Shown here piece after piece: positions 13,328 to 52,931 of a DNA stretch of 52,931 nucleotides. Below the pieces are notes generated by a model. It ran no database searches, was not told where the DNA came from, and was given only the letters and a program-made list of their open reading frames with translations. Position numbers and translations under genes: made by a program. This stretch comes from Chthoniobacterales bacterium (GTDB taxonomy: Bacteria > Verrucomicrobiota > Verrucomicrobiia > Chthoniobacterales > JBDTJR01), in assembly GCA_039935735.1 (NCBI GenBank), contig JBDTJR010000010.1, forward strand, positions 1 through 52,931, given 5' to 3'. Positions within the stretch are counted from its first letter, which is position 1, and each line of letters starts with the position of its first letter.

Positions 13328-13416
13328 ATCCAGTCTTGCCGCGTTCAAGAAAATGCTTACTTGTCTTCGGCATATCCCGTATCGACAAGTCAGCGGAAAT
13401 ATTGTTAGAAAACGCC

Positions 13417-35887: not shown

Positions 35888-36964
35888 TCAGGCTGGCATT
35901 GCTTCGAGAAGGAAGCGCTTCCAGTTTCCGAAAAATACCTTATCGATATCCTCCGACTTATAGCCACGGCTCTCGAGGACAACCTCGAGCTTGTGGAGAT
36001 CGTAAATCGTTTCGATGTCGCCCGGGCTTTGCTCCGTGCCGTAACCACCGTCAAGATCGCTTCCGATCGCGGCATGGTTACAATTTCCCGCCAACTGGCA
36101 GATATGGTCGATATGGTCGGCGACATTTTCCATCGTCACAAGATCACGGGACGTTTTCCCCAACACCCAGCCGGGCATAAGCATCCAGGTATCCATAACT
36201 GCACCGATCACGCCATCGCGCTCGATGATCATGCGCAACTGCTCGTCGGTAAACTGGCGTTCGTCATTCACAAGACTGCGGCAGTTGTTATGACTCGCAT
36301 GAATACGACCGCCAAAAAGATCAATCGCCTGGAAAAAGCTAGGATCGCTCATGTGCGTCATATCGAGAATCATCCCGACTTCCTCCATAGCCTTGAGCAC
36401 CGCAGGAGCGCGTGAAGTCAACGGGCCGGAAGCATTGGTCCCCACCGCATAAGCGCTTGCGCCGTAATGAGACAGACCTAGCAAGCGCAGACCACGATCC
36501 CACCATACTTTGATATCGTCGGCATTCAGGATCGGATCAGCCCCTTCCATCGCGAGAAAATATCCCTGTGGTTGCGCATCAAAATCTTTCTCGCAAGCCG
36601 CCCAATGCGATTTCAAATCCGATGCCGTAAAGAGCTGACGCATCGCACCCTGGCTTTCGAGGATATGGTAATACTGAAGCTGCCCGACCGCCGTCGCATT
36701 CGCAATCTCCTGGTTTCTAAAATCCAGATCCACCCGCTTCCAGGAAAGCACTTCGGATTTGGCACGTGCTAGAAGCGTTGCAAAACAAACGGCCATTTTC
36801 GCACGCTTCATTTCCGGAAGACTCACCGTCGCAAGATCACGGCCCTGCGTGTCATCCATTCCTCTTTCAGCGGCGCGAATGTGCGCGATGGATTTTGTAA
36901 TATCCCGGTTCCATGACATGGCGTTCCAGGAAAGGTCCAAATGGGAGTCGATTAGGTATCTCAT
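35888..36964 (-). CDS. Membrane-dipeptidase family (peptidase M19) protein
   Basis: IDSHLDL (HxD), GLSHYG, and VADHIDHICQLAG..HAAIGSDLDGG match the M19 zinc-ligand architecture. Confidence 0.8.
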   Translation of the reverse strand: MRYLIDSHLDLSWNAMSWNRDITKSIAHIRAAERGMDDTQGRDLATVSLPEMKRAKMAVCFATLLARAKSEVLSWKRVDLDFRNQEIANATAVGQLQYYHILESQGAMRQLFTASDLKSHWAACEKDFDAQPQGYFLAMEGADPILNADDIKVWWDRGLRLLGLSHYGASAYAVGTNASGPLTSRAPAVLKAMEEVGMILDMTHMSDPSFFQAIDLFGGRIHASHNNCRSLVNDERQFTDEQLRMIIERDGVIGAVMDTWMLMPGWVLGKTSRDLVTMENVADHIDHICQLAGNCNHAAIGSDLDGGYGTEQSPGDIETIYDLHKLEVVLESRGYKSEDIDKVFFGNWKRFLLEAMPA

Positions 36965-38395: not shown

Positions 38396-41179
38396 TTAAA
38401 AAAGGTCGTTACCTTTCAACAGGATCATCTCTACACCGCGAAGTGGAACTTTTACAGTCAGTTTCCCATTCGCAAATTCCGATATCAGGTTACCACTACG
38501 CACACCCGTGACACTCTCAGGTTTGTTGCGACATGCAATTTCCACCGTCACTGGATAAGGCTCAATAGTATCAAGATCGACATCCGTACTTAAAGGATTG
38601 GGATGCTTCCTTCCCAAATTACCCAATCCGTAATCGACAAGACCCACGGCGGAGGCGTCCTTGTTCACTGTAACACGTCCGCTGATCATGGTATCACTTA
38701 CCTTGACCGTTGAGGGCAAGGTCGTCGCTGGAAGCGTTGCAAATTCGCGTTGCGTTGCGTTTTGCGCCAGGATCGTTGGGAAAATATCCCGCAGGTTATG
38801 CTCATAAGTCGCACGCATGTAGCTTAATCCTGGAGCGAGTCCATATTGATAAACCACTCCCTGTCCTTTCTTCGTTTTGACAAGCGCAGGTGAACCATCT
38901 GAAAAAGTCGCAAGGATTTCTGTCTCTGCTTCCGGAGTAATCTTCGACTTCTGGCAGATCACCTCAATGGTCTTGCCGTTCCATATGACTTTATCGAGAG
39001 GAACAATCGCTCCGGCGTTCCCGATTCCTCCACGCAGGGCATCGTTTTTGACGGATTGAAGCCCTGCGATGCCGAATACCTTCGCACCACTGGTGACCGG
39101 TTCATCAAATTCATTGCGAACCTCCGGCACAGAACTCACCAGTGTACCGCCTTTATCAACATAGCCATCCAATGCGGACAGCGTCTCCTTGCGCATATCG
39201 GTACCAACTACAAAAAGCATCTGATAATCTTTTCCCATCCCATCAATGAGATCCTGCTCGGTTATGACATCGAGAGGAATTCCCGCATGCAGATATGCCA
39301 GATAAAGAGCCGCACATTTTTCATAAGCCGTGCGATCCCAAAGAATACACGAGCTGGGATAAACAATCGCTGCATGCGCTGGCTGCACCTTGCCACCTAC
39401 GACTACATTTTCAGCCAGCGCCAGTTCACGTGCAATTTTCGCGGCGCCCACAGCATTTTTTGGATTACAGATCCAACCGATTTCTCCACCTATAGGACTA
39501 TAAGGATAGAGAAAAAAGATCGTATTTCCCCGCATCAGGCGCTCGTAAAACTTAAAGAGATCGCGCGACGGAGCCGAGACGCCATCAAAGCCAAAGATAG
39601 GATAGTCGCCGATGGGAATATTCCGGTATTTTGCCTGCGACCGCATCTGCTCCGCATACCATGCCGTGATTCCCGCCCCTCCTGGTTCAATCTCAAGCCA
39701 GTCTTCGCCCCACACTACGCCTAAACCGGGGCGGCGATATAGCTCCCACAAATCAATGGTATTCCCCGTATAATATTCAAAACACGACCAGTTTACCTTT
39801 GAGAGAAGATGCGGATTCAATTCCGTAAAAATCTTCATCGAGCTATCCCAGAAATTGATCTGCTCATCCATCTGGAATTGACGGGACAATGTAGAAAGTC
39901 GTTTTTGCGATATATTGGGAGCAATGCACTTCACCTGCTCCCATGCTCCCACTCCGGCATCCTGTGGTGTGAGATTCCTTTTCTTCATCCACTCCACAAA
40001 AGTCGCATCCACGGCAGGAGTCTTCGGCAACTCCGTAAATCGTGGCTCGTCCGCGCCATTCACAAGTGTGGGAATCGCAATGTTCTTCACCGCGTCTGCA
40101 TTCTTGCGAATGATCGCTTCGATTTGTGGTGTAAAATGAAAGTCAGGAGCGTTGGCATAGAACGGCGCACTAAACAGCCCGTAAGTAGCGCCCATCGCCG
40201 CTCTATCGGATTCCAGTTCATCGAGAATGAAATTCCCATTAAGTCCGATTGCCCGCGCCATCTTGATTTCTGTATGCAGGGTATCGTAGTTAGGCTGATC
40301 GCGATTTTGAATCGATGCCGCAATGAACCATATTTTTTGCGGCACGGGACCTGTCAAACTTGCCTTTGCAAGAGCGTCAATGTTTTGTTGAAACATATCC
40401 TGGAGGGTTAACAGGGAAAAAGAACCGTCCACCGCAGGAACCATGAAACAATATTCCTTACAGGGTTTTGCTCCAACGACCTTGATTGCTTTAAGCGGTT
40501 TTTTGCCATCGGCATCCGCATAAAATTCGATGTCTGCATTCACAGAGTCGAGAAAAGAAAACGCCATGGTGCAGCGCTCGCGCACTTCCTGCGGAAAAGC
40601 GGCGACTACCGTGGCTTCGCCAGGTTTTAACTCTCCGGTCTTAGCATCGAATCCTGTAGGAGAGCCATATCCTATGTTAACTCCGGCTCCCATAGTCCGT
40701 ATAACGCCCACCGAGGCGCGAAGCACTTTATCTCCGTTATTTCGAATGCGAAAATAGATCACTGCATCCTGATTGCGAAAAGCCGCGATGTAGTTAGGAT
40801 CAGTGGTGGCAAACATCCCGTCAAACTTTGCTCCATCGAGAGGCTCCACCATGATAGAGGCAGGCCCGCCATCCGCCTCGCCCACCGGCATCACAGCTAC
40901 CGTCGTGCTTGCCAAAGGAACTGTCGAGATAACCGTGATCCACCCAAACGACGGGATCGTCACTTCCTGCTGTGTCGTGCCATTCTCCGTCTTGAAGCTT
41001 ATACGGAACTTCCCCTCTCCTCGCAGATGCGAGTAAACAGCGAATGGCGTATTTTTAACCGGTCCGGCAATCCATACGGAAGGCTTGTCGATGGCACGTG
41101 TCCAGTCGCCGACTTCGACCTCGGCAGCATGGAGCGAGAGACAAGTTAGAAGCAGTGTGAAGAGGTGGATTTTGCGCAT
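38396..41179 (-). CDS. Large secreted protein with a GH42-like (beta-galactosidase-type) central region and an uncharacterised N-terminal region of about 280 aa
   Basis: Signal peptide. The segment AAIVYPSS..W......YLAYLHAGIPLDVI....L....YQMLFVVG......L..LDGYVDKGGTLV closely follows the GH42 trimerisation (class-I glutaminase-like) domain pattern, with a TIM-barrel-sized region upstream. The family call is tentative. Confidence 0.5.
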   Translation of the reverse strand: MRKIHLFTLLLTCLSLHAAEVEVGDWTRAIDKPSVWIAGPVKNTPFAVYSHLRGEGKFRISFKTENGTTQQEVTIPSFGWITVISTVPLASTTVAVMPVGEADGGPASIMVEPLDGAKFDGMFATTDPNYIAAFRNQDAVIYFRIRNNGDKVLRASVGVIRTMGAGVNIGYGSPTGFDAKTGELKPGEATVVAAFPQEVRERCTMAFSFLDSVNADIEFYADADGKKPLKAIKVVGAKPCKEYCFMVPAVDGSFSLLTLQDMFQQNIDALAKASLTGPVPQKIWFIAASIQNRDQPNYDTLHTEIKMARAIGLNGNFILDELESDRAAMGATYGLFSAPFYANAPDFHFTPQIEAIIRKNADAVKNIAIPTLVNGADEPRFTELPKTPAVDATFVEWMKKRNLTPQDAGVGAWEQVKCIAPNISQKRLSTLSRQFQMDEQINFWDSSMKIFTELNPHLLSKVNWSCFEYYTGNTIDLWELYRRPGLGVVWGEDWLEIEPGGAGITAWYAEQMRSQAKYRNIPIGDYPIFGFDGVSAPSRDLFKFYERLMRGNTIFFLYPYSPIGGEIGWICNPKNAVGAAKIARELALAENVVVGGKVQPAHAAIVYPSSCILWDRTAYEKCAALYLAYLHAGIPLDVITEQDLIDGMGKDYQMLFVVGTDMRKETLSALDGYVDKGGTLVSSVPEVRNEFDEPVTSGAKVFGIAGLQSVKNDALRGGIGNAGAIVPLDKVIWNGKTIEVICQKSKITPEAETEILATFSDGSPALVKTKKGQGVVYQYGLAPGLSYMRATYEHNLRDIFPTILAQNATQREFATLPATTLPSTVKVSDTMISGRVTVNKDASAVGLVDYGLGNLGRKHPNPLSTDVDLDTIEPYPVTVEIACRNKPESVTGVRSGNLISEFANGKLTVKVPLRGVEMILLKGNDLF

Positions 41180-41244: not shown

Positions 41245-42042
41245 CTATATCCCGTTGGGCTGTGTTGCTCCGCGCACCAGTGTATAACTACGTGCTTTTT
41301 TGCCGGGAAGGAGTCTGCAATGCGCGCTGGCATAGTGGACTTGAAGCGAGCGACGACGGGATCCGGAACGGTTTGTCGGAGTATAGTGAAAGACCCGACT
41401 CGAGAAAAGTAGGACATCTCCCGGCTCCATTGGTAAAGCCACCTTTTCAAAGTGCTCCATGAATTCAGGACTTATAACCTTGTGCGGCGTACCTTCTTTT
41501 TGCGCATGGTCTACCACCGGTAGGCGATGCGTTCCCGGCCATACAAACATACATCCGTTCTCCTCAGTCGCACGATCAAGCGCCCACCAGGTACCAACAA
41601 CCTGATCGAACGGTTCGATTTCGAAATACGCTGCGTCCTGATGAAGCGGTTTTTCAGATCCGATGAAAGGAGGCTTAATTAACGCCATATCTTGAAGAAC
41701 TTTTATGTCCTCTCCGAGCAACGATACGAGCGCTTCGGAGACAGACGCGTTTTTTACGAGTCTCAGAAAGCGATCATCGCTGGAAGCTTTCTGGTGAAAA
41801 CCACGTACGGCCAGCAATCGCTCTTCATCTGTAAGAGCTTCGGGTTTCCGGTTTTTGAGAATTTCCTCTTCATAGGAAACTTCCAGAGGATGTTTTATGA
41901 TATAGTCATCGATTGACTCTTTTGCGAATTCAACCGTTTCAAGATCAACGAGCCCGCGAACTACAAGATAACCCTGCTGGTGATAATCAGCGACCTGTTG
42001 GGCTGTTAGCGTACCGTAAGGAGATAAGGATTTTGCCTTCAT
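41245..42042 (-). CDS. Phytanoyl-CoA dioxygenase (PhyH) family Fe(II)/2-oxoglutarate oxygenase
   Basis: YHQQGYLVVRGL N-terminus, HQDAAYF (HxD) and a distal His in FSSRVFHYT. Confidence 0.8.
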   Translation of the reverse strand: MKAKSLSPYGTLTAQQVADYHQQGYLVVRGLVDLETVEFAKESIDDYIIKHPLEVSYEEEILKNRKPEALTDEERLLAVRGFHQKASSDDRFLRLVKNASVSEALVSLLGEDIKVLQDMALIKPPFIGSEKPLHQDAAYFEIEPFDQVVGTWWALDRATEENGCMFVWPGTHRLPVVDHAQKEGTPHKVISPEFMEHFEKVALPMEPGDVLLFSSRVFHYTPTNRSGSRRRSLQVHYASAHCRLLPGKKARSYTLVRGATQPNGI

Positions 42043-42109: not shown

Positions 42110-42973
42110 TCACCGGTTCGATGTGCGGAAATGCCCGGGAGTACTGCCCGCAACTTTCTTAAACTGACGACAAAAATGCGCTGTCTCGCGGTACCCCAGA
42201 TCAGCCGCAATCGCTTCCACCGTATAGGGCGACTCCAGCAAGAGCAACTTCGCCCGTTCCATCCGACGATGAAGAAAAAATTGCTTGGGAGATTTACCAA
42301 AACATACCTGCATCCGGCGTCTGAATGTATTGGCGGAAATGCCACACATCCGGGCAAGCTTCTCCGTGCTGGGATCAAGCTCTCCCGTTTGCATGGGATA
42401 AGTCAGGGCAGGAATGAGATCCTGATAGGAAATGGGCGCAGTCTGTAAGTCATCACTGTGCCCGTCCTCACGAATCAACCAAAGAATCGACCTCAGTAAA
42501 TTATTGCTCAGGTTATCATGAGTCGGGGAAAGCAACATCCCTGCACGGATGGCACGCGGTGAAATCGAATTGGTCACGCGTAACATCAATTGCTCAAGAA
42601 GAGGGAACCCGGAGACTTCCATACAAATCTTTGTTCGAAAAGTGGCAGGCAGACTCACTTTATTCCCCTTGGAATTTTGCAACTCGAAACGCACGACCGA
42701 AGTGACGAGAGGCTTCCGTTCGTTGTGGGTGATGCCATAAGTCTCACCCGGTATGCCAAAGAGCAAACTGCCGCGCCGTAATTTGTAGGAACGGTCGGGA
42801 CAAGCCACTTCGCCAAGCCCTGCTCTCACCAGGAGAAGACGGTAATCAGGCCATGCGCGATAAGGAAGCACCCAGCCGCGGCCGCACTTGGAGCTGCTTG
42901 AAACAACAATCTTTAAACTTAATCTGGAAAGCTCCTGTCTGGCTTTGCGTGCGGGAATATTCCGCGTGGTCAT
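42110..42973 (-). CDS. AraC-family transcriptional regulator (cupin-like sensor plus dual HTH)
   Basis: The C-terminal region SANTFRRRMQVCFGKSPKQFF...LGYRETAHFCRQFKKVAGSTPGHFR is a canonical AraC/XylS HTH region. Confidence 0.85.
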   Translation of the reverse strand: MTTRNIPARKARQELSRLSLKIVVSSSSKCGRGWVLPYRAWPDYRLLLVRAGLGEVACPDRSYKLRRGSLLFGIPGETYGITHNERKPLVTSVVRFELQNSKGNKVSLPATFRTKICMEVSGFPLLEQLMLRVTNSISPRAIRAGMLLSPTHDNLSNNLLRSILWLIREDGHSDDLQTAPISYQDLIPALTYPMQTGELDPSTEKLARMCGISANTFRRRMQVCFGKSPKQFFLHRRMERAKLLLLESPYTVEAIAADLGYRETAHFCRQFKKVAGSTPGHFRTSNR

Positions 42974-43034: not shown

Positions 43035-43820
43035 TTACAGCCAACGTATGATATCACCCCGAGAATCGAGCTTGCAACGAATCGTTCGTGCATCCACGCG
43101 TTCGACTCCCATACGAGCAGCATAGCCATCAGCCATATCGCTCCGATAGAATGTAAGCTCTGCCGTTATAGGAAGTTTTGGCTTAAAGGGCGAAAAGGAT
43201 TTTGCGTTCGATACCGCACGTTTTGCGGTTTTACGAATAATGTCGTGGGCTTTTTCAAGAGAGAGACATTTCGCCTTATTACGACATACCCCCCATTTAA
43301 CGACGGCGGTTTCCACTTTCCCGAGAGTCGCTTTAGCCTCGATCCCCGTTGTCCCATCTCCAGAAACCATGATTACCGGGACATCGAAATGCCCTGCGTA
43401 GGTCGCTTCGATCCCGATTTCTCCCACGACTTTTCCGTTGATGCGGAATTCGAACCATTCCCCGGAATTCATTGTATGATCGAGGAAGCCATTGATCGTC
43501 CCCGCTTTCGCGTGATGTCCGATAAGAATAACGCCGTCGAACGACTTATCCAGTGACGGCATGAGATTTCCCGGCCATATAGGAAGCTCATAAATTGCCC
43601 GAGGATCCATCTCAGCAATCCGCACCTGTCCACCACCGGCATGAGTGTCCGTCACAACCACCTCGGTAGCGCCGCCGGAAAAAGCACCATCGATTGCCGC
43701 ATTGATATCCCACATCATCAGCTTACGGCCTTCTTCATACTCTGGAGAAGCACTTTGCACCTGCGGCCATGTGCGAATGCCCGAGATACCTTCCATGTCC
43801 GCGAGAATGTAAATTTTCAT
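43035..43820 (-). CDS. M55-family D-aminopeptidase (DppA-type)
   Basis: MKIYILADMEGISGI N-terminus, VVVTDTHAGG and GHHAKAG match the Bacillus DppA-type peptidase M55. Confidence 0.85.
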   Translation of the reverse strand: MKIYILADMEGISGIRTWPQVQSASPEYEEGRKLMMWDINAAIDGAFSGGATEVVVTDTHAGGGQVRIAEMDPRAIYELPIWPGNLMPSLDKSFDGVILIGHHAKAGTINGFLDHTMNSGEWFEFRINGKVVGEIGIEATYAGHFDVPVIMVSGDGTTGIEAKATLGKVETAVVKWGVCRNKAKCLSLEKAHDIIRKTAKRAVSNAKSFSPFKPKLPITAELTFYRSDMADGYAARMGVERVDARTIRCKLDSRGDIIRWL

Positions 43821-43838: not shown

Positions 43839-44699
43839 TTACTGCGCGAGTTCGTGACAACGCTTCAGATGCGCAAGATCGTCGCGTATCTGATCCGGCG
43901 TACAACCCGTCGGGATATGATGGTTTTCGTTGCTTACCCATCCATCATAACCCACTGCCTTAAATGCCTTGAAAACCGTAATCCAGTTTACAAATCCCGC
44001 TTTCATTTCAGCGGTATCGCGTTGCCATAATACGCCACCACTTTCCGTAGCTCCGCGGGCGGTAAGTCGCGCATTCTGGGCGTGGCAGTAAGCAAGATAA
44101 GGGCCGAGCAGTTCACAGCCCATCTGCCAGTTTTCAAAACCCTCCATTGCCATATTACCAGGATCATACATTACGGCCATGTGCTTCGGGTCGAGTCCAT
44201 CGAGGAGTCGATGTGCCAGCGAGGCAGATGGCGTGAGGCTACCGGCATGAAGTTCGAGTAATCCCTGAACTCCGGCGTCTTTGCACAAATCTGCAGCACG
44301 GGAAAAGTCCGCACGAGCGGTTTTGTACAACTCATGATAATTTGCCTGAGCGCGATACCATGTGCCACAGATTCGCAAACGTGGAGAGCCAAGTGCTTTC
44401 GCGATTTCGATAGAGACCTTCACGTCGTCGGGATCGTTCGCCTGACAGTAGGTGGCGAGGTTTGAAAACTCCAGCCCATTATTGCTCATGATACGTTTGT
44501 ATTCGGGAACAACTTTTTTCCAATTCTTTACATCGAGAGTTGTGCGATTGCTGCCCCAGAGATTGGGAATCAGAGGAAGTTCATCGGGTTGTGCGAGACA
44601 GCGCCACTCCACACCATCGTAACCGGCCTCCTTGATGAGTTTCGCAGCTTCGTCCGGCTTACACTGTGGAAGTGTCAAAGAAAAGAGTGAGTATTTCAT
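43839..44699 (-). CDS. Sugar phosphate isomerase/epimerase (xylose-isomerase-like TIM barrel)
   Basis: GYDGVEW, LRICG, LELHAGS, YDPGN and SNENHH patterns are typical of the family. Confidence 0.8.
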   Translation of the reverse strand: MKYSLFSLTLPQCKPDEAAKLIKEAGYDGVEWRCLAQPDELPLIPNLWGSNRTTLDVKNWKKVVPEYKRIMSNNGLEFSNLATYCQANDPDDVKVSIEIAKALGSPRLRICGTWYRAQANYHELYKTARADFSRAADLCKDAGVQGLLELHAGSLTPSASLAHRLLDGLDPKHMAVMYDPGNMAMEGFENWQMGCELLGPYLAYCHAQNARLTARGATESGGVLWQRDTAEMKAGFVNWITVFKAFKAVGYDGWVSNENHHIPTGCTPDQIRDDLAHLKRCHELAQ

Positions 44700-44727: not shown

Positions 44728-45819
44728 TTAGATCCACGGGCAAAGTTTGCGGCATTTTTCCAGAACGGCGATTTGTCTTTGGATGCTTTCAGGCGTGACT
44801 ACAAGAGGAGTGCCTTTTTTGAGGGTCTTATATAAATCCTGGTAGAAAGGAATGTATTGAACCGGTTGATCCGGCGGAAGGGTCCATTTCTCTTCCGTCC
44901 AGTCATACTGTTCTGAATTGTAACTCCGGTCGGGAGTCGGCTGACGATCCACGGGGCGCGCGGGCAGTTTTGAGAAATCGACATATTTCCATGTGAGTTC
45001 TTTTTGAGTTCCAGTGAGTCCTCCCTCGGTCCCCATGACATGCCACATGTTCTGTGGGAAGGCGCAGCTTTTTGTGATTTCCACATCCACCACGGGTGCA
45101 CCTTCGGCACGTAGGACAACCTTCACATGATCTTCTGCATCGCCACTGGTGAGCGTACGATCAAGATGACAGAAAATTTCAGGTTCCGTGGAACCAAAAA
45201 ACTGCAACCCCTGGTCAATAAAATGCGCGCCGGAATTATTTAGTTCACCGCCGGAAAATTCCTTGAGAGTTTGCCAATCCCAGCGTCGGCCAAAACCATG
45301 AATGCAGATGCGGATCTGAACAATGCGGCCCAGTTTACCACTGGCAATAACCTCACGTAACTTTACAAAACTTGGCATGTAGCGATTTTGCTGAAAGCCT
45401 GTGAGCACTTTGCCCGCAGCTTTTGCGGCCTTCATCATTTGTGTGGCTTCGTCGCTGGTTGAGGAGAGCGGCTTTTCACAGATGACATTTTTATTCGCGG
45501 AAAAGGCTTGTAACGCCTGTTCGTAATGAAAGCGGCTGGGCGTTGCGAGCACTACGAGATCCACTTCGTTATCGGCAAGGAGAGACTCCAAATTTTCGTG
45601 AGCGCGACAACCGAATTTCGCGACAGCCTCCTGGCGACGTTCCTCGCTCTGATCGGTAACCGCAACAACCGCAAACTGCTCCGGCATACCCGCTAAGGTC
45701 AGCGCATGGATCGCCCATCCGCTTCGTCCCAGACCGACGATACCAACACGAACGGTATCATTCGTAATATGAGAATGGCAGTCCTTTGATTTTGCTTCAG
45801 AAATAGCTACTTCGCTCAT
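44728..45819 (-). CDS. Gfo/Idh/MocA-family NAD(P) oxidoreductase
   Basis: VRVGIVGLGRSG Rossmann motif, EKP (ICEKPL) signature and C-terminal alpha/beta domain. Start set to ATG 45819 (MSEVAIS), which leaves the conserved element intergenic; the track's 45927 start overlaps the upstream gene. Confidence 0.85.
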   Translation of the reverse strand: MSEVAISEAKSKDCHSHITNDTVRVGIVGLGRSGWAIHALTLAGMPEQFAVVAVTDQSEERRQEAVAKFGCRAHENLESLLADNEVDLVVLATPSRFHYEQALQAFSANKNVICEKPLSSTSDEATQMMKAAKAAGKVLTGFQQNRYMPSFVKLREVIASGKLGRIVQIRICIHGFGRRWDWQTLKEFSGGELNNSGAHFIDQGLQFFGSTEPEIFCHLDRTLTSGDAEDHVKVVLRAEGAPVVDVEITKSCAFPQNMWHVMGTEGGLTGTQKELTWKYVDFSKLPARPVDRQPTPDRSYNSEQYDWTEEKWTLPPDQPVQYIPFYQDLYKTLKKGTPLVVTPESIQRQIAVLEKCRKLCPWI

Positions 45820-45844
45820 AGTCCCTACCCTAATGCGCCGGGCC

Positions 45845-45904: not shown

Positions 45905-46795
45905 CTAGAGAGCGGCTTTCGTTTCAAGAAGCTTTTTTAGACCGTCGCTGTAGACTTTATCCATCTCAGCACTTGTGAAAGCACGGTCCGTGAAAAAACC
46001 AAAATCATCCACCTCGCCACCTGCTTCGAGATTGTAAAAAGCCGCAATGACGGCATCTCCGGTAGCCGCAGAAATACTCGTAGGGCCATCGACCCCGGTC
46101 TCCTGAGTGGCGATGGGAAGTCCATTCACGTAAAAAACCATTTTTCCCTCATCAAACGTCATTCCCATTTGAATCCATATCCCCTGAAGAACGGAATTAA
46201 AGCGCGGCGAACGAAAGGTAACGCGGCCTTTGCCTGCGGGGAAAAAATTGAAAAAGAGCGCCTTATATTCCTCACTGTATCCAAAAGAAAAGAATCCCTC
46301 ACCTGCACCTGCGGATCCGCGACCAACACTCCATAAAAGGTAGCCCGGTGGAAAACCGAGAGGCTGCACCATATTGTTTGGAGTATTTTCACGGGCAGAC
46401 TCCGGACGCGGAGCGTTGCGACGCATGAAAATATAAAATCCTTTTGTCGAATTAGGAGGACGAATCCACGCCGTGATCGTCATCTTATGGAGCTCACCAT
46501 TGAAAGCCGCAGAAGCGGAGGCAAGCCCAGCGCGGGGGGCGCGTCCCCAGTTTGTCTGCGCCTCACTTTTGCCCTCTTCTGGAAGCTCGATCACCATACA
46601 GCCGCTACCGAATTTCGGATCGTCAGCCGTCTGATGCGTTTTTCCGACATAGTGAAGAACAAGTGCCCCGGAGATGGAATTCGTTGGAGCTGCCGGATCG
46701 CGGTTATCGTCGAAGTAATAAACATTATCAACAGCACACGCCACGTCCACTGTGAGAATCAGCATACAAAGAGAAAATGGGAGGACTTTCATCAC
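45905..46795 (-). CDS. Secreted LamG (Laminin_G_3 / ConA-like) protein, paralog A
   Basis: Signal peptide. Blocks DNVYYFDDNRDPAAPTNS, PKFGSGCM, HKMTITAWIRP, WIQMGMTFDEGKMVFYVNGLP, VDDFGFFTDRAFTSAEMDKVYSDGL. Carries a central insertion of about 40 aa relative to B-D. Confidence 0.8.
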   Translation of the reverse strand: MMKVLPFSLCMLILTVDVACAVDNVYYFDDNRDPAAPTNSISGALVLHYVGKTHQTADDPKFGSGCMVIELPEEGKSEAQTNWGRAPRAGLASASAAFNGELHKMTITAWIRPPNSTKGFYIFMRRNAPRPESARENTPNNMVQPLGFPPGYLLWSVGRGSAGAGEGFFSFGYSEEYKALFFNFFPAGKGRVTFRSPRFNSVLQGIWIQMGMTFDEGKMVFYVNGLPIATQETGVDGPTSISAATGDAVIAAFYNLEAGGEVDDFGFFTDRAFTSAEMDKVYSDGLKKLLETKAAL

Positions 46796-46804
46796 TGGGG
46801 AATA

Positions 46805-47578
46805 TTAGGGAGAAGATTTTGTTTTGAGAAACTCATCCAGCCCGTTGTTGTAAATTTTCTCAATATCCGCTGCAGAAAGCACACGATCTGTGAAAAGCCC
46901 GAAGTCATCGACATTACTGCCTCGCGGAAGATTGTAAAATCCCTCCAAAACTGCAGCCGCCTTTATCTCAGGAATGAAGACATTCCCCAGATCAGTTCCA
47001 CCAACAGGAAGCCCATTAATATAAAAAGCGACCTTCCCCTCATTGAAAGTCATAGCCATATGCATCCATTCACCTCCAAGCACACATAAAAACTTATCAG
47101 AATTAATGCCGTAGAATTTTCTGTCTTTTCCGACGAAAGAAAAGGAATAACAATTATAAGGCGTCGGAAAATAACGAAACAGCATCGTGCCCTCAGGAGC
47201 GGGATAGGCAATGCGACTGAGAACGCAAAGCTCCCTCGAAGTAAGAGAGGGGCGAATCCATGTCACCACGCTCATTTTATGAATGGCTCCGTTCCATTCA
47301 TTGAGGAGCGAGGTGAAGCCTGCATGATGCTGAAGCTTGTCCGCAGGATCACCCATAACCTCCATACTCCCCTGACCGAACTTATGCTGTGTAGTGGTCT
47401 GACGCGTATCGGCGTTAAAATGCATCGCCTGTGTTGCGCCGCCCGAGTTCGCAGGCACGGTCGGATCCGCATTATTTTCAAAGAAATAATAAAGATTGAA
47501 ATCAGGTGCCGCTACGGCCACTCCCGTTAAAAGAAAAATCAGGCAAATACAAAAAAGACGGATCATGAGTGCAAACAT
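46805..47578 (-). CDS. Secreted LamG (Laminin_G_3 / ConA-like) protein, paralog B
   Basis: About 70% aa identity to paralog C by eye. Start taken at ATG 47578, overlapping C's stop as TGATG; the track's 47581 start is TTG. Confidence 0.8.
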   Translation of the reverse strand: MFALMIRLFCICLIFLLTGVAVAAPDFNLYYFFENNADPTVPANSGGATQAMHFNADTRQTTTQHKFGQGSMEVMGDPADKLQHHAGFTSLLNEWNGAIHKMSVVTWIRPSLTSRELCVLSRIAYPAPEGTMLFRYFPTPYNCYSFSFVGKDRKFYGINSDKFLCVLGGEWMHMAMTFNEGKVAFYINGLPVGGTDLGNVFIPEIKAAAVLEGFYNLPRGSNVDDFGLFTDRVLSAADIEKIYNNGLDEFLKTKSSP

Positions 47579-48336
47579 CAATGAGAAGGCTTCGTTTTAA
47601 GAAACTCTTCCAGACCGTTGTTGTAAATCTTTTCAATATCCGTAGCGGAGAGTGCGCGATCCATGAAAAGTCCAAAATCATCGACATAGCTTCCACGTGG
47701 AAGACTGTAAAATCCCTCAAGCCGAGCAGGCTCTTTTATTGCAGGAATGAAGGCAATCCCCACATCGCCACTTCCAGCCGGCAGACCATTTATATAATAA
47801 ACGATTTTTCCTTCGTCAAAGGTTACAGCCATGTGCACCCATTCATCTGCCAGCACACATAAAAACCGGTCCGAAAGTACGTAGTGATTTTGATTATTAC
47901 TGATGAAGGAAAGGGTTAAATAATTATAGGGTGTCTGAATATAACGAAGCAGAATAGTGCCATCTGGAGCGGGGTAGGTAATGCGGCTCAGAATGCCAAT
48001 CTCCTGTGAAGTAATAGAAGGGCGGATCCATGTCACCACACTCATCTTGTGGATAGCGCCACTCCACTCATTCGGAAGTGAAGTGAAACCGGCGGGATGT
48101 TGACGGATTTCGGCAGGATCACCCACAACTTCCATGCTTCCCTTGCCGAATTTATGCACCGAGGTGGTTTGACGCGTATCGGGATTAAAATGCATCACCT
48201 GTGTTGCGCCACCCGAGTTCGTTGGCAACGCTGGATCCACATTATCTTCAAAGAAGTAATAAAGGTTTGAATCCGCCGCGATGGCCATTGTGCCCACGAG
48301 AAGAAGAATCAGACAAAGATATGATGAGCGGATCAT
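47578..48336 (-). CDS. Secreted LamG (Laminin_G_3 / ConA-like) protein, paralog C
   Basis: Signal peptide. Blocks SNLYYFFEDNVDPALPTNSGGA, HKFGKGSM, HKMSVVTWIRP, WVHMAVTFDEGKIVYYINGLP, VDDFGLFMDRALSATDIEKIYNNGL. Confidence 0.8.
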   Translation of the reverse strand: MIRSSYLCLILLLVGTMAIAADSNLYYFFEDNVDPALPTNSGGATQVMHFNPDTRQTTSVHKFGKGSMEVVGDPAEIRQHPAGFTSLPNEWSGAIHKMSVVTWIRPSITSQEIGILSRITYPAPDGTILLRYIQTPYNYLTLSFISNNQNHYVLSDRFLCVLADEWVHMAVTFDEGKIVYYINGLPAGSGDVGIAFIPAIKEPARLEGFYSLPRGSYVDDFGLFMDRALSATDIEKIYNNGLEEFLKTKPSH

Positions 48337-48357
48337 GGGTGTATCGGATAAGAAGCC

Positions 48358-49128
48358 TTAGGAACCGGGAGAAGCTTTAAGAAAAGCCTTCAGGCCATTC
48401 GTATAGACGGCGTCCATTTCTTTTTCCGTAAGAGCGCGATCCATAAAAAATCCGACATCATCCACATAACTACCGGGCGCAAGCGTTGTGAACATGGAAA
48501 CAAAACTGTCAGGTTCCTGCATGGCGGGAATAAACTTCATGTCCGGCGCTTCTGAATGTCCAACCGGCAGACCATTTATATACATAACTGCCTTCCCCTC
48601 ATCAAAAGTCACCGCGAAGTGCAGCCATTCTCCCTGAAGGATACAATTTACTATCGGTCCCGTGATACCGATCCGCACACCCTGTCCCGCAGCGCCAAAG
48701 AAAAAGCATCGATAAGCAATGGAGTAGTCTATCCCAATATAGCCCGGTTTCAGACCAATCGGCACATTGCGAATGAGAATATGAAAGTCCTTGCCAGTAG
48801 CGGCGGGACAAATCCATGCAGTGATCGTCATTTTATGAATTTCACCACAGAAAGCTCCCGGCGCAGCTAAAAGCCCTCCGCGAAACCCTTTTCCCGGAGC
48901 ATCATTTTTCCCGATAAACATACTGCCCGTTCCAAACTTAAACTTTTTATCGGTCTGATGGGTTTTCCCGATATACTGCATGATCTCTGTAGATCCGTTG
49001 GAATTCGTCGGCACGGCAGGATCCTTATTATCGTCGAAGTAATAATAGATATTTGAACCTGCAAGCGCGACAGAGACCGTAAAATTAGCTGTCAGAGCAA
49101 GGAATAGAAAATATTTCAAAAAGCGCAT
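48358..49128 (-). CDS. Secreted LamG (Laminin_G_3 / ConA-like) protein, paralog D
   Basis: Signal peptide. Blocks SNIYYYFDDNKDPAVPTNS, FKFGTGSM, HKMTITAWICP, WLHFAVTFDEGKAVMYINGLP, VDDVGFFMDRALTEKEMDAVYTNGL. Confidence 0.8.
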   Translation of the reverse strand: MRFLKYFLFLALTANFTVSVALAGSNIYYYFDDNKDPAVPTNSNGSTEIMQYIGKTHQTDKKFKFGTGSMFIGKNDAPGKGFRGGLLAAPGAFCGEIHKMTITAWICPAATGKDFHILIRNVPIGLKPGYIGIDYSIAYRCFFFGAAGQGVRIGITGPIVNCILQGEWLHFAVTFDEGKAVMYINGLPVGHSEAPDMKFIPAMQEPDSFVSMFTTLAPGSYVDDVGFFMDRALTEKEMDAVYTNGLKAFLKASPGS

Positions 49129-49253: not shown

Positions 49254-50654
49254 TCATACTAAATCGAGAAAAGGAATTACGCCAAATGGTGCTGTGTTGA
49301 CACTGCTCAACTGGATAATTCCATTTTGAATTCTCACGGTGGGCCAGCCTTGATTACCCAACTGATAAAGATCCGGATGCGATTCCAATATTTGCTTTTG
49401 AATGACAGGAGAGCATGAAGAAAGCCCTGCAAAGTAATGGTGACCATTTCGTTCTACACTTTTATTTCCGAGTGCGGCTTGTACTGCGAGGTCTTGAAGC
49501 AATGCTACGGGACCTATATTGGACAGGTCCTCCCCGCTCATGATAAACGAAGTGGAAGAATTGGAATCGCTGCGTTTTTTAGCCAATAGACACGCATTGG
49601 CTATTCCGTGAAAAACGCCTTTACAGTTTTTGTGGCTCACTCCGGCATATCCCAACTCTAAAGCGCGAGGCAAAGAGGCAATCTCCGCATCGGACTCGTC
49701 GATAATAATGGGGGGCCGTTCTCGCCACGAGAGCATTGATTGCCCGACTTCCTCGCTTAATGCAAAATCACGATGAAAAGGCTGTTCGACAAACAGAAGT
49801 TTTTGCAGAAATTCGCGTAATCCTGAGTCCTCCTGAATAAGCGACCAAAAGTGACGAAATTGTCCGACATCAGAAAAGCTCTCGTTTCCATCGAGGCTAA
49901 TCTCAGGCACGACCCCGCATGACTCCATGACGGCACATATTTTTTGCAATCTCGCCATGCTCGCTTTGACATCCGAAGTGATTTTAATTTTTAGCTGACG
50001 AATGCCGTATTGGTAAACACAGGCTTCCAGGGATTGCGGTAATCCGTCATCCAATCTTTCGCTAGAAGGAATTTCCTTTTCAAAAAGAGGATCGGAAAGC
50101 CCGACAGTGTGGCGACAGAAAACTTCTTGAAGTGGAGCAACAGGCAGCCAGTCCGAGGGAGCGCTACCAGCCAACTCTGAATGCATTTCTTCCAGATTAA
50201 TTCGAAAAGCATTTTCCCGAAGAAGACGATGAAAAGGTTTTTTTTGACTCCGACAAAATGCGTCGATCAGCGCACGCTCGATGAGCGAAACCCCAAATTG
50301 ACATAGAAGAGGTGGCCATCCCTTCTCTCTGCCCCATGCGGCTTGCTTTTCATAGAGCGCTTTCCATAGGGAAAAAACGTCATTACCCTCCATTCCGCGA
50401 GCCAGTTCTGCGGCATGCTGAATAACCTCCAGCATATCGTCAATCTCCTCAATCGGGTCTCGATGCGGGTCTTTGGTAAACCATTTGGGAGGTAAGTGAT
50501 CCGCCGCGATGCCACGGCAGGAGATCTCATTGATTTCGCATTCCATCTCGACAAAAAGATGTGGCAGCTCTGTAAGTACTGCAATGCCGTATCGAAAAGG
50601 CATTCGCGTGCGAAGCTCCACCCGATGGAGAGAAATCTGTGCTATACGGATCAT
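49254..50654 (-). CDS. Enolase-superfamily enzyme (MLE / dipeptide-epimerase-like subgroup), unusually long at 466 aa
   Basis: Ordered catalytic set: K222-x-K224 (LKIKI, 49983-49991), D255 (SLDGNE), E290 (FVEQP), D319 (IIDESD), K342/K345 (SHKNCKG). Spacing is 35/29/23-26 residues, close to known MLE-subgroup members. Confidence 0.6.
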   Translation of the reverse strand: MIRIAQISLHRVELRTRMPFRYGIAVLTELPHLFVEMECEINEISCRGIAADHLPPKWFTKDPHRDPIEEIDDMLEVIQHAAELARGMEGNDVFSLWKALYEKQAAWGREKGWPPLLCQFGVSLIERALIDAFCRSQKKPFHRLLRENAFRINLEEMHSELAGSAPSDWLPVAPLQEVFCRHTVGLSDPLFEKEIPSSERLDDGLPQSLEACVYQYGIRQLKIKITSDVKASMARLQKICAVMESCGVVPEISLDGNESFSDVGQFRHFWSLIQEDSGLREFLQKLLFVEQPFHRDFALSEEVGQSMLSWRERPPIIIDESDAEIASLPRALELGYAGVSHKNCKGVFHGIANACLLAKKRSDSNSSTSFIMSGEDLSNIGPVALLQDLAVQAALGNKSVERNGHHYFAGLSSCSPVIQKQILESHPDLYQLGNQGWPTVRIQNGIIQLSSVNTAPFGVIPFLDLV

Positions 50655-50795: not shown

Positions 50796-51947
50796 TTAGA
50801 CGATGAGATGGCGAAATCGTGCACGATATTCTCCCGGAGTCGCCCCAACTTTTTCACGAAAGAGTTTTGTCATATAGGGAATACTTAGGAAGCCGCTTGC
50901 TTCGGCGATCTCGTAGAGCTTCATGGAGGTGGAATGCAAGAGGTGCTGGACGCGTTCTATCTTCAATAGCTGGATCACTTCGCCAATAGTGTAGCCAAGA
51001 CACTCGTGAAATCGACGCTCCAGCGTGCGACGAGACATGGGAACGTGTTTGAATATCTGCGGAAGGAGGGTGACTTCATTCAGGTGGGCGCGGATGAACT
51101 CGATGGCGCTGTTCACATGCTTATCGCGTGTCATGAGTGCGTTTGCGGATTCGCGCTGAATGACTCCACCGGGCGCGATGAGAATAGGACTTATCGGAGG
51201 AGCTTCACCCTCCAGCAAGCGCACCATTAATGCAGCCGCTTCATAACCGATACGCTCCGGCCTCGGCTCTATACTCGTAATACCGGGGTGCCGGGTCTTG
51301 CAGAAAAACTCATCATTCCCATAACCCACGATACCCACCTCCTTGCCAATTTCGATATCAAGTGCTTCGCAGGCATTGTAAACCTGATAGGCATCGCGGT
51401 CACTTACACAGAATATTCCCACCGGCTTCGGAAGATGGGCAATCCAGCGCTGCAGATTTTTCTGTTGTACAAGGTTGATCATCTCATCGAAGTTTTTCAT
51501 AGAATCGAGATGCATTGCGCATTTAAAACCCGCCTCAAGGATTCCTTTTTTAAAGCCGACGCGACGCAAGACATGCTGGTTTCCTTTAATGGAGCCGTAA
51601 CATCCGAAGTTATGAAACCTGCATTTCAGCAGATGCTCGGCAGCCATGCGACCACCAGTTTCGTTATCGCTGATCGCTGATGGCAAGCCAAGAGGCTTGA
51701 GCGCGCTGGACATATTCACTACAGGCACACCGTGAGAACGCACCGTGCGTATCAAAGAAAGCTTCGTCGCGAGAAAGATAATGCCTTTGAGGGTTTTTCG
51801 TGGATGAATGAAGGGTTCGCCAAAAGTGAGCGCCAGCTCGAAGTTCCTGCCATTTTCGGAAAAATAATCAATGATACCCTGATAGACCAACCGGGTAAAA
51901 CGACCATCGGGATCAAGGACAATATAAATGCACGGACGTTTCCGCAT
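50796..51947 (-). CDS. XylR-type regulator: periplasmic-binding-protein-like sugar sensor domain fused to an AraC-family HTH
   Basis: The N-terminal two-thirds have a LacI/PBP-type fold pattern (GIIFL, VPVVN, GIFCVSD, VGIVGYGND). The C-terminus PMSRRTLERRFHECLGYTIGE...GFLSIPYMTKLFREKVGATPGEYR is an AraC HTH. ATG 51947 is preferred over the track's TTG 51998. Confidence 0.85.
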   Translation of the reverse strand: MRKRPCIYIVLDPDGRFTRLVYQGIIDYFSENGRNFELALTFGEPFIHPRKTLKGIIFLATKLSLIRTVRSHGVPVVNMSSALKPLGLPSAISDNETGGRMAAEHLLKCRFHNFGCYGSIKGNQHVLRRVGFKKGILEAGFKCAMHLDSMKNFDEMINLVQQKNLQRWIAHLPKPVGIFCVSDRDAYQVYNACEALDIEIGKEVGIVGYGNDEFFCKTRHPGITSIEPRPERIGYEAAALMVRLLEGEAPPISPILIAPGGVIQRESANALMTRDKHVNSAIEFIRAHLNEVTLLPQIFKHVPMSRRTLERRFHECLGYTIGEVIQLLKIERVQHLLHSTSMKLYEIAEASGFLSIPYMTKLFREKVGATPGEYRARFRHLIV

Positions 51948-52104
51948 GCGCAGGAGACTAACGCAAAGACCCACAGACTTCAATAGCGCATAATTCAAAA
52001 AGGGCTAGTCTATTCGTGTCGCGCTAGAGAACTGGATTGTCGTTGCAGAGAATTGATGAAATTTCGCAGGTGCTGTAATTTCACGTAATCAATCACCCCT
52101 ATCT

Positions 52105-52931
52105 ATGAAAAAATCCCCTGTTACCTATTTAACGTTCATGGCCCTTGCTACCATGGCATTTCTCGGATCGACACATGCGGCAACGATTCAGGAATGGCTG
52201 TTTGATCAGACTCCGGTGGGTGCTGCTTTCGCAACAGTTAACGAAGTGCCAGGTGGCGCTACTCCGTTTCAGCAGCAGAATGTCACTAATACATATCTGA
52301 ATTTACAGGTACCAGGCGGCAAATTTCCACAGAGCACAGGCATGCTGGATCTGCATTTGGCCAAAAATTCCGCTTCGGGAACCGGCGGTATCGTGTGGTC
52401 TAGCATCACTCAGTTTACCATCGAGCTATGGGTGAATCCGGCGACCATGACGACCGGCACGAGCATGGATGTATTCAACTACGGCTCCCAGATCATGCGT
52501 CTGACCTCCACGGGATCGGGTTACAAATTAGCTGCTTACCTTTTCAATGGAGGCTTTATAGCCGCAACCAGCACAGCAACGAACATTCCTTCGAATACCT
52601 GGACGCAGATCGCGATGACTTGGAATGGCAGCACCTTGATAACCTATGAAAATGGAATACAGGATATCTCCGTGCCCACGGGTGTCACGACCCTTACAGG
52701 GAGTACCTCACTTTCCATCGGCGCATCTGGAACGGGAGGGCAAGGTCAATACTATGGATATATTGATGAGATGCGCGTAAGTAATGTCGCGCTGCTCCCA
52801 GGCACCGGCACGGGAGTCAATGAGCTGGCGTGGAATGCAAGTCTCGTGGCCGTTCCTGAACCCGGCACGACTGCGCTTCTACTGGGAGCGGGCGGGCTGA
52901 TGGCCTGGGTCGTGCGTCGCAAAAAACGCTA
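52105..52931 (+). CDS. LamG-domain protein with PEP-CTERM anchor (paralog F); stop codon cut by the window edge
   Basis: Absent from the supplied ORF track because no stop codon is reached. My translation is MKKSPVTYLTFMALATMAFLGSTHA...FTIELWVNP...WTQIAMTWNGSTLITYENG...YIDEMRVSNVAL...VPEPGTTALLLGAGGLMAWVVRRKKR, followed by 'ta'. VPEP lies at 52852-52863. Confidence 0.8.
   Translation, partial: MKKSPVTYLTFMALATMAFLGSTHAATIQEWLFDQTPVGAAFATVNEVPGGATPFQQQNVTNTYLNLQVPGGKFPQSTGMLDLHLAKNSASGTGGIVWSSITQFTIELWVNPATMTTGTSMDVFNYGSQIMRLTSTGSGYKLAAYLFNGGFIAATSTATNIPSNTWTQIAMTWNGSTLITYENGIQDISVPTGVTTLTGSTSLSIGASGTGGQGQYYGYIDEMRVSNVALLPGTGTGVNELAWNASLVAVPEPGTTALLLGAGGLMAWVVRRKKR

Follow-up and report, generated by a model that had tools for sequence, protein, structure and literature searches.

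The window analysed here, a stretch of 52,931 nucleotides (nt) from a Chthoniobacterales bacterium (GenBank assembly GCA_039935735.1, contig JBDTJR010000010.1), carries a head-to-tail array of four genes at positions 45905 to 49128 that encode exported proteins with a single LamG/ConA-like domain. These proteins are here designated paralogs A to D, and a fifth copy encoded elsewhere in the window is designated E. Judged by their sequences, A to E are part of a small stand-alone family of LamG proteins of ~255 amino acids (aa) that is centred on Verrucomicrobiota and represents an uncharacterised subfamily of a very well-known domain type. We consider it about an even call that A to E are Sec-exported, single-domain, noncatalytic glycan- or glycoside-binding accessory proteins of a sugar-utilisation locus, with the paralogs widening its specificity. 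The LamG proteins of the window are as follows.

48358 to 49128, minus strand: open reading frame (ORF) for paralog D (256 aa), a signal peptide plus one LamG_3 jelly roll (PF13385, E = 6e-10, 39.9 bits)
47578 to 48336, minus strand: paralog C (252 aa; PF13385, E = 1e-10, 42.3 bits)
46805 to 47578 (257 aa, ATG at 47578) or to 47581 (258 aa, TTG), minus strand: paralog B (PF13385, E = 1.4e-8, 35.5 bits)
45905 to 46795, minus strand: paralog A (296 aa; 295 aa from the ATG at 46792), with two loop insertions (PF13385, E = 8e-9, 36.3 bits)
27268 to 28140, plus strand: paralog E (290 aa), with a Pro/Ala/Lys-rich C-terminal tail (PF13385, E = 1.3e-9, 38.9 bits)
52105 to 52931 (window end), plus strand: protein F, a PEP-CTERM-anchored generic LamG_3 protein, divergent from the gene for a XylR-type regulator (PF13385, 65.1 bits)

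The ORF calls place the four minus-strand array genes where an earlier sequence-only reading of the window had put them, and the anatomy which that reading described, a signal peptide and one LamG domain with neither an anchor nor a recognisable catalytic module, was borne out. As it had also expected, A, B, C, and D each have a single match to PF13385 (Laminin_G_3), and all four matches (35 to 42 bits; E = 1e-8 to 1e-10) lie above the curated gathering score of 27.6 bits. The signal peptides of A to D read as Sec type, with a basic n-region, a hydrophobic core, and an AXA-like site, the cleavage sites of A to D being read as ACA↓V, AVA↓A, AIA↓A, and ALA↓G, respectively. A lipoprotein anchor was ruled out for these four proteins, as no lipobox was seen in their sequences, and a PEP-CTERM or N_methyl tail was likewise ruled out for A to E.

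Copy E, which had been proposed as a fifth soluble copy, is a true family member, with its own PF13385 match and 37 to 40% identity to A to D. The status of F had to be revised: the predicted PF13385 domain and PEP-CTERM signal are both present, but F is only ~19% identical to A and is thus a generic LamG_3 protein outside the stand-alone subfamily. Its C terminus, VPEPGTTALLLGAGGLMAWVVRRKKR, comprises a PEP motif, a hydrophobic helix, and a basic tail (TIGR02595, 24.7 bits with a cut-off of 16; PF07589, 26.1 bits).

When 1.84 billion representative proteins were searched exhaustively with the profile, 5770 hits were obtained at E ≤ 0.001, of which 677 reached E ≤ 1e-10 and 32 reached E ≤ 1e-30. 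Among the best 150 hits, about 44 clusters (at 50% identity) consisted of proteins of 215 to 295 aa that matched the profile from end to end, and the remainder were giant multi-repeat proteins matching profile positions ~98 to 246 only. All of the short family proteins have a signal peptide, and they share the motifs F.Y.F[DE], KFGxGS, I.KMT..W..P, EW.H.A.TFD.G.V.FY.NG, and DDF..F.DRAL and a C-terminal GL..F helix. The features that mark membership, namely, a length of ~215 to 295 aa, a signal peptide, the N-terminal F.Y.F[DE] and KFGxGS strands, and the C-terminal GLxxF helix, were all found in A to E. Pairwise E values to relatives range from 1e-36 to 1e-67, which rules out chance similarity, and PF13385 was matched in 40 of 40 family members. 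NCBIfam has no model for A to E, and the relatives are named in databases only as "LamG-like jellyroll fold domain-containing protein"; the remark in the sequence-only reading that no role had been described is therefore fair for the subfamily. The idea of carbohydrate binding is itself not new, since pfam13385 proteins encoded near carbohydrate genes in metagenome-assembled genomes (MAGs) of Verrucomicrobia have been treated as carbohydrate-binding modules (He et al. 2017, PMC5615132). A scan of metagenome contigs for the family returned one weak fragment only, and a scan of genome contigs with a narrow peptide pattern returned one MAG and one weak planctomycete match.

To separate subfamily features from those of the domain at large, the conservation of each alignment column in 40 family members was set against that in 608 LamG_3 repeats from giant proteins. 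Residues W103, W166, H168, A170, T172, Y181, N183, G184, D219, and L229 are conserved in both sets. Conserved in the family specifically are F29, K62-F63-G64-x-G66-S67, G83, R118, G176, I197-P198, and G241-L242-x-x-F245, which are mostly glycines and hydrophobic residues; no family-specific acidic/histidine or catalytic-looking polar cluster stands out in this comparison of 40 members. The polar residues conserved in the family (K62, S67, R118, S155, H168, T172, D174, N183, and D219/D220) are for the most part common to generic LamG_3 domains. The five collinear blocks that had been described for A to D are seen in the alignment. Because the conserved residues from position 98 onwards are shared with the 608 generic repeats, blocks 3 to 5 are the ordinary LamG_3 signature; the sequence-only reading had assigned this signature to the last two blocks, which is correct for those two but too narrow, as block 3 is also generic. 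At the sequence level, the subfamily is defined by blocks 1 and 2, which are specific to it, together with the terminal helix. Generic PF13385 domains, such as those of giant surface proteins and the accessory modules of glycoside hydrolases, share the signature W103, W166-x-H168, T172, Y181-x-N183-G184, and D219 and the same jelly roll, whereas here the domain makes up the entire mature protein and, unlike the generic repeats, has conserved N-terminal strands (YYF..DN and KFGxGS) and a C-terminal helix (NGLxxFL).

An AlphaFold2 model of paralog C, computed with a 40-sequence alignment (pLDDT, 92; pTM, 0.88), shows one beta-sandwich of about 15 strands (residues ~25 to 224) followed by two short helices (residues 231 to 248). 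The Pfam match starts at residue ~96 to 102, so that the N-terminal YYF..N.DP block, whose coverage by existing models had been raised as a question, lies outside it; in the model, this block forms the first strands of the same jelly roll and is not an extra module. Foldseek comparison with the PDB gave 703 matches at E ≤ 0.001, and all of the top 50 were LamG/ConA-like modules. The top matches were the HCN domains of the clostridial neurotoxins BoNT and TeNT and the NTNH protein (E of about 1e-11; query-normalised TM score of about 0.6), and the best stand-alone structural match was domain 4 of AbnA (5hon, ligand-bound; target-normalised TM score of 0.71). A profile search of the PDB retrieved an S-layer-domain protein (4qvs; E = 1.8e-14), tetanus toxin, the pappalysin LamG domain, AbnA, the NanA lectin domain, and pentraxins, with E values of 6e-9 for the toxin HCN, 1.7e-6 for AbnA domain 4, and 3.6e-4 for the NanA lectin domain. 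As placed by the model and the profiles, the nearest solved relatives, including CBM40 and the pentraxins, are all noncatalytic binding modules.

Domain 4 of AbnA, a GH43 arabinanase of Geobacillus stearothermophilus (5hon and 5ho2), is a LamG-type module of an extracellular carbohydrate-active enzyme; this domain, which binds arabinan, differs from the LamG paralogs in being covalently joined to its enzyme, and the sequence identity is ~15%. In the toxin HCN and in NTNH, a helix follows the jelly roll as it does in the LamG paralogs, but the HCN is a domain of large toxins and the paralogs have no toxin context. The Pfam model of the clostridial neurotoxin receptor-binding N-terminal domain (PF07953) matched 2 of the 40 family members weakly (best E, 0.008), and A to E are single-domain proteins.

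Paralogs B and C, estimated previously to be about 70% identical, share 68% identity at the protein level and 74% at the DNA level. Two further details of this pair proved exact: positions 47401 to 47451 and 48171 to 48221 differ at 4 of 51 nt by script comparison, and at the junction CATTGATGTTT the TGA stop codon of C overlaps the ATG of B (TGATG). All other pairs among A to E are 37 to 45% identical at the protein level, D being 40 to 45% identical to A, C, and E and 37% identical to B. The insertion reported for A is present, but alignment with B, C, and D revealed two insertions rather than one. For the B/C pair, dN/dS is 0.17 and dS is about 1.1, and synonymous sites are saturated in every other paralog pair; from this we conclude that the array is old and has evolved under purifying selection. 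The 4/51-nt stretch had prompted consideration of recent gene conversion between B and C, which was rejected: nucleotide identity in sliding windows varied from 0.53 to 0.83, with synonymous differences throughout and no clear recent conversion tract. An independent assembly (L015, from Logan run SRR26386581; L numbers denote the loci compared here) contains the same 12-kb stretch with 99.88% identity, differing by 13 substitutions and one intergenic indel. All ORFs are intact in it, so the possibility of inactivating lesions in the paralogs was not confirmed. The paralog C protein is identical in that run, and the paralog A allele differs at 2 residues, both of its differences being amino acid changing.

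The array lies within a long run of minus-strand genes, comprising every gene from 51998 down to 35888. The order is XylR-type regulator, enolase-like protein, D, C, B, A, Gfo/Idh/MocA oxidoreductase (GFO), TIM barrel protein, M55 peptidase, AraC-family regulator, PhyH-family protein, 927-aa protein, a 3-hydroxyacyl-CoA-dehydrogenase-type protein, and M19 dipeptidase.

50796 to 51998, minus strand: XylR-type regulator, combining a sugar sensor with an AraC helix-turn-helix (Peripla_BP_3, E = 4e-27; HTH_18, E = 1e-18)
49254 to 50654, minus strand: enolase-superfamily-like protein, cytoplasmic, directly upstream of the array (weak MR_MLE_C match of 24.8 bits, below the cut-off)
44728 to 45822, minus strand: GFO with no export signal, directly downstream of the array (GFO_IDH_MocA, E = 2e-27)
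43839 to 44699, minus strand: xylose-isomerase-like TIM barrel protein, cytoplasmic (AP_endonuc_2, E = 2e-27)
43035 to 43820, minus strand: Peptidase_M55, DppA-type D-aminopeptidase-like (PF04951, E = 5e-78), the last tightly spaced gene, with an 18-bp gap to the TIM barrel gene
42110 to 42973, minus strand: AraC-family regulator (HTH_18, E = 1e-21), downstream of the tight run
41245 to 42042, minus strand: PhyH-family 2-oxoglutarate dioxygenase
38396 to 41179, minus strand: secreted 927-aa protein with the signal peptide MRKIHLFTLLLTCLSLHAAEV and a subthreshold Glyco_hydro_42M match at residues 620 to 796
35888 to 36964, minus strand: M19 dipeptidase

The gaps from D through the M55 gene range from -1 to 28 bp (that between A and the GFO gene depends on the GFO start codon), and this spacing suggests that D through M55 form one transcription unit. 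No export signals were found in the N termini of the enolase-like, GFO, and TIM barrel proteins. The 927-aa protein is the only exported protein of the cluster besides the LamG proteins; it had no relative in a PDB sequence search and may, from its sequence, be a novel glycoside hydrolase. The nearest solved relatives of the window GFO are unnamed oxidoreductases, and the nearest characterised ones are the C-glycoside 3-oxidase DgpA, 1,5-anhydrofructose reductase, and inositol dehydrogenases, while PDB sequence searches with the enolase-like and TIM barrel proteins returned nothing. With the neighbouring genes, no NCBIfam model scored above its curated cut-off, and the cluster could therefore not be assigned a substrate.

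The three superfamilies to which these cytoplasmic proteins are related include sugar 1- or 3-dehydrogenases, acid-sugar dehydratases or epimerases, and ketose isomerases, dehydratases, or lyases, and by analogy with these roles the enolase-like/GFO/TIM trio plausibly constitutes an oxidative sugar pathway. More than 7400 homologues of the enolase-like protein (~470 aa) were retrieved; the best 120 are all at least 51% identical to it and are named only "hypothetical" or "L-Ala-DL-Glu epimerase-like", and wherever one of these 120 is given a taxon name, the taxon belongs to a Verrucomicrobiota lineage. The genes for the enolase-like, GFO, and TIM barrel proteins follow one another in the same order in L020 (5040 to 8379) and L021 (1342 to 4681), and in a Methylacidiphilales MAG the trio is preceded not by a LamG gene but by the gene for a different secreted protein of 297 aa with no Pfam match. 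The trio is thus kept while the upstream exported protein differs, indicating that the cytoplasmic trio is widespread and its exported partner varies. It represents a very widespread and uncharacterised gene set in Verrucomicrobiota.

The closest relatives of the array proteins (about 40% identity) are encoded in Chthoniobacterales MAGs. Three contigs of one of these, GCA_039931985.1, carry related loci. In L018 (contig JBDTQX010000210), a tandem three-member LamG array is followed by the gene for a 190-aa protein and then, two genes downstream of the array, by an AraC gene whose product is 61% identical to the window AraC regulator at 42110 to 42973. In L019 (contig ...146), the order is XylR-type regulator, PEP-CTERM LamG protein, E-type LamG protein, enolase-like protein, and GFO, the contig ending inside the GFO gene; identities to the window orthologues are 53% for the XylR-type regulator, 70% for F, 72% for the enolase-like protein, and 53% for the GFO. 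In L014 (contig ...013), an AraC gene is followed by genes for a LamG protein, two GFO proteins, and a TIM barrel protein, and the same arrangement occurs in a second MAG (L003). The gene set, of which F is a part, therefore recurs in other orders; the set is conserved and the order is not. The regulated catabolic island proposed in the sequence-only reading holds on this evidence and is conserved, as the set of regulator, LamG, enolase-like, and GFO genes is found again in GCA_039931985.1.

In a neighbour-joining tree, B grouped with C, the three L018 copies grouped with that of L001, and E grouped with the L002 and L019 copies (P0010 and P0013). As the L018 array forms a clade separate from B/C, tandem duplication took place independently in different lineages, which agrees with the repeated local duplication that had been postulated; the B/C duplication is lineage specific. 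Copy E is 48% identical to the LamG protein of L019, and on this sequence evidence it is an orthologue of the "E-type" copies in related MAGs. In the window, the neighbours of E are a GH31/melibiase-like gene on one side and a SASA-like esterase gene on the other. Its Pro/Ala/Lys-rich low-complexity tail (for example, KASAPKTTPAPSASPAASPAPKK) is found on E-type members and on members of the GFO-operon type (window, 27268 to 28140; L014, 10001 to 10807; L003, 9980 to 10795; L002, 3374 to 4258) and is lacking in A to D; it may be an envelope-tethering or spacer element. The database call for the L019 copy (P0013, 4330 to 5139, 229 aa, GTG start) looks truncated, and an upstream in-frame ATG adds a signal peptide and the YFYFEDNGDP block (MKIKRYVFASILIGLMGVQAPRSFAADPGAYFYFEDNGDPAVPAN...).

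Around more distant family members, a sugar-sensing regulator is present (LacI, GntR, or XylR type, with a periplasmic-binding-protein-like domain), a regulator of the XylR type found in the window being encoded beside family members in L002 and L013. Carbohydrate enzymes encoded near distant members include DUF4838/GH67N, GH28, AXE1, GDSL, and lactonase proteins. A PEP-CTERM gene directly adjoins the LamG gene in L002, L010, L012, L016, L017, and L019, and a prepilin-like N_methyl gene occurs in the LamG clusters of L012, L013, L016, and L017. A recurring cassette can accordingly be outlined in which a secreted stand-alone LamG protein is accompanied by a sugar-sensing regulator, a PEP-CTERM-anchored beta-helix/PATR-like protein, and a prepilin-like N_methyl protein, and in many cases by DUF4838/GH67N, GH28, AXE1, or GDSL enzymes (L016, 580 to 9607; L017, 158 to 3703; L013, 123 to 3988; L012, 497 to 12454; L002, 365 to 4258; L010, 886 to 3212). 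We found no description of such a LamG/PEP-CTERM/prepilin cassette in the literature searched. On the basis of the roughly 12 contexts compared, we treat the cassette as a lead and not as a result.

A binding or accessory role, as suggested in the sequence-only reading, is the best-supported account of A to E: their neighbours by sequence and by structure are all binding modules, and no catalytic-looking residue set was seen. We infer this role from fold and homology, and the same applies to the ligand class, the noncatalytic nature, the final location, and any cooperation with the PEP-CTERM or prepilin-like neighbours. In the mechanism that we propose, A to E would serve as accessory proteins in the periplasm or on the cell surface, where they would bind ligands that are most probably oligosaccharides or glycosides. 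Their genes would be cotranscribed with those for the cytoplasmic enolase-like, GFO, and TIM barrel enzymes under the control of sugar-sensing XylR/AraC-type regulators. Outside the cytoplasm, the exported LamG proteins would capture or retain substrate, with PEP-CTERM-anchored proteins of the surface possibly taking part; once imported, the sugar would be processed by the cytoplasmic enzymes. Old tandem duplications and subsequent divergence, concentrated in loops and insertions, would widen the ligand range.

Several observations weigh against this account. As the GFO and TIM barrel proteins lack export signals, the LamG proteins and the enzymes would reside in different compartments, and no transporter is encoded in the cluster, which leaves the route of the substrate to the cytoplasmic enzymes unexplained. 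A scan for promoters and terminators found no more sites than in shuffled sequence. The presence of the M55, M19, and PhyH dioxygenase genes means that the substrate might not be a plain glycan; a glycopeptide or a conjugated amino sugar is also conceivable. Contacts between proteins are likewise among the functions of LamG domains, and 12 of the 40 family members have weak matches to PF06439, an enzymatic ConA-like family.

The last point bears on a different explanation, that the LamG paralogs are exported and use a ConA-like scaffold for catalysis, either as functional analogues of the 3-keto-glycoside lyase/hydratase DUF1080 or as some other lyase or hydrolase feeding the cytoplasmic GFO and TIM barrel proteins. 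DUF1080 (3keto-disac_hyd, PF06439) is likewise an exported ConA-like jelly roll encoded beside Gfo/Idh/MocA proteins, a xylose-isomerase-like TIM barrel, and a regulator, and the 3-keto-glycoside pathway comprises an exported jelly-roll DUF1080 protein (BT2157/AL2), a GFO exported by the twin-arginine translocation (Tat) system, a cytosolic GFO, and an exported TIM barrel lyase (bioRxiv 10.1101/2024.03.25.586180; PMC8121099). Both L014 (jelly roll, two GFO proteins, TIM barrel, and regulator) and the window (four jelly rolls, GFO, and TIM barrel) parallel the BT2156-2160 and AL1-5 clusters, only one Pfam model matches the family more often than PF06439 does (best E, 1.3e-4), and the characterised proteins of solved structure that are closest to the window GFO include the glycoside 3-oxidase DgpA. 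However, none of A to E matches PF06439 at E ≤ 1, and neither a DUF1080 nor a GH16 structure occurs among the PDB profile matches (E ≤ 0.01) or the top 50 fold matches. The channel of BT2 is lined by Glu103, Asn134, Glu164, Gln166, Tyr190, Lys245, Gln273, and His275, plus a metal site (bioRxiv 10.1101/2024.03.25.586180), and no comparable set of conserved Glu, Asn, Gln, Tyr, Lys, and His residues is seen in the family when conserved columns, rather than superposed structures, are compared. In the known pathway, the first GFO is Tat exported and periplasmic beside DUF1080, whereas the GFO and TIM barrel proteins here have no signal peptides and appear cytoplasmic; at the N termini of the GFO proteins of the window and L014 stands either the Rossmann motif itself or a non-Tat leader. 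The window GFO and TIM barrel proteins also score only 53 bits (cut-off, 650) and 32 bits (cut-off, 750) against the NCBIfam models for BT_2158 and BT_2159. We therefore regard an enzymatic function as quite unlikely. A role as envelope or surface modules for protein-protein contacts also seems unlikely; the LamG proteins would then be partners of the PEP-CTERM beta-helix proteins or of the N_methyl pseudopilins in an apparatus specific to the Planctomycetota-Verrucomicrobiota-Chlamydiota (PVC) superphylum, and the catabolic neighbours would share regulation only. The PEP-CTERM and N_methyl adjacencies listed above are in line with it, as is the position of F beside the window regulator; the amphipathic C-terminal helix (GLxxF), which is family specific and absent from generic LamG_3 repeats, could serve for docking, and for the closest fold matches, the toxin HCN and NTNH, we know of no sugar ligand that is firmly established. 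PEP-CTERM and N_methyl genes are, on the other hand, very numerous in these phyla, so that some adjacency is expected by chance; the window array has no N_methyl neighbour, and L003, L014, and L018 have neither partner.

The explanation that the array consists of redundant or decaying duplicates with no distinct function is close to refuted. Four similar genes in a row, the large insertions in A, and the amino-acid-changing nature of both A differences between assemblies might be taken to favour decay, but every ORF is intact in two assemblies, the youngest pair has the low dN/dS given above and the others are saturated at synonymous sites, the family-wide motifs are kept in every copy, and arrays and single copies have been retained in related genomes at about 40% identity.

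Returning to the binding role, the proposed function of A to E resembles that of SusD and the surface glycan-binding proteins (SGBPs) of Bacteroidota, which are exported noncatalytic binders in substrate-regulated carbohydrate loci and often occur as diverged paralogs. The likeness is a functional analogy in the proposed role only: the LamG fold is unrelated, and the proteins have no lipid anchor and no SusC-type partner. As a doubtful extension, the stand-alone LamG proteins could be the soluble part of an undescribed substrate-capture system of the PVC superphylum. Under the control of a sugar-sensing regulator, a PEP-CTERM-anchored surface protein would be induced along with at least one secreted LamG binder and, in many cases, a prepilin-like protein; the matching hydrolases or oxidative enzymes of the cytoplasm would be coinduced, and tandem LamG paralogs would set the ligand range. 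In a variant of this scheme, LamG would replace DUF1080 as the exported jelly-roll enzyme in a rearranged pathway of the 3-keto-glycoside type. If such a capture system exists, it would be a functional counterpart of the SusD/SGBP layer of Bacteroidota. Among the major degraders of complex glycans are Verrucomicrobiota and their relatives, which lack the SusC/D machinery that accounts for glycan capture in Bacteroidota and whose extracellular substrate recognition is poorly understood. Because the family is encoded beside sugar-sensing regulators, PEP-CTERM proteins, and carbohydrate enzymes, it offers a concrete candidate for the recognition step, one that is compact and easily expressed, and the four diverged paralogs of one putative operon form a natural panel for ligand specificity. 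Should the proteins be ordinary binders resembling carbohydrate-binding modules, the gain would lie in better annotation and not in new biology.

Some other features of the window were also noted. The product of 59 to 4363 (1434 aa) has five PATR (passenger-associated transport) repeats and a PEP-CTERM signal and, by its domain content, is an autotransporter-like passenger on an exosortase-type anchor. Rubrerythrin is fused to a VIT1-like membrane domain at 13336 to 14376. A bacterial alpha-2-macroglobulin of 1848 aa (15815 to 21361; MG2, A2M_BRD, A2M, and bMG10) is preceded by a tetratricopeptide repeat (TPR) protein (14454 to 15818) and directly followed, with overlapping genes, by a PBP1C-type penicillin-binding protein (21340 to 23556; Transgly, Transpeptidase, and BiPBP_C), a pairing that is known. 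An Fe/Mn superoxide dismutase (31674 to 32510) has an N-terminal extension of ~70 residues before Sod_Fe_N and may for that reason be exported. On the plus strand, an ORF with hexapeptide-repeat transferase matches (32663 to 34357) and one for a 2-hydroxyacid dehydrogenase (34084 to 35346) overlap by 274 nt; as the Pfam matches of the latter begin at residue ~130, the TTG listed as its start probably lies upstream of the true one.

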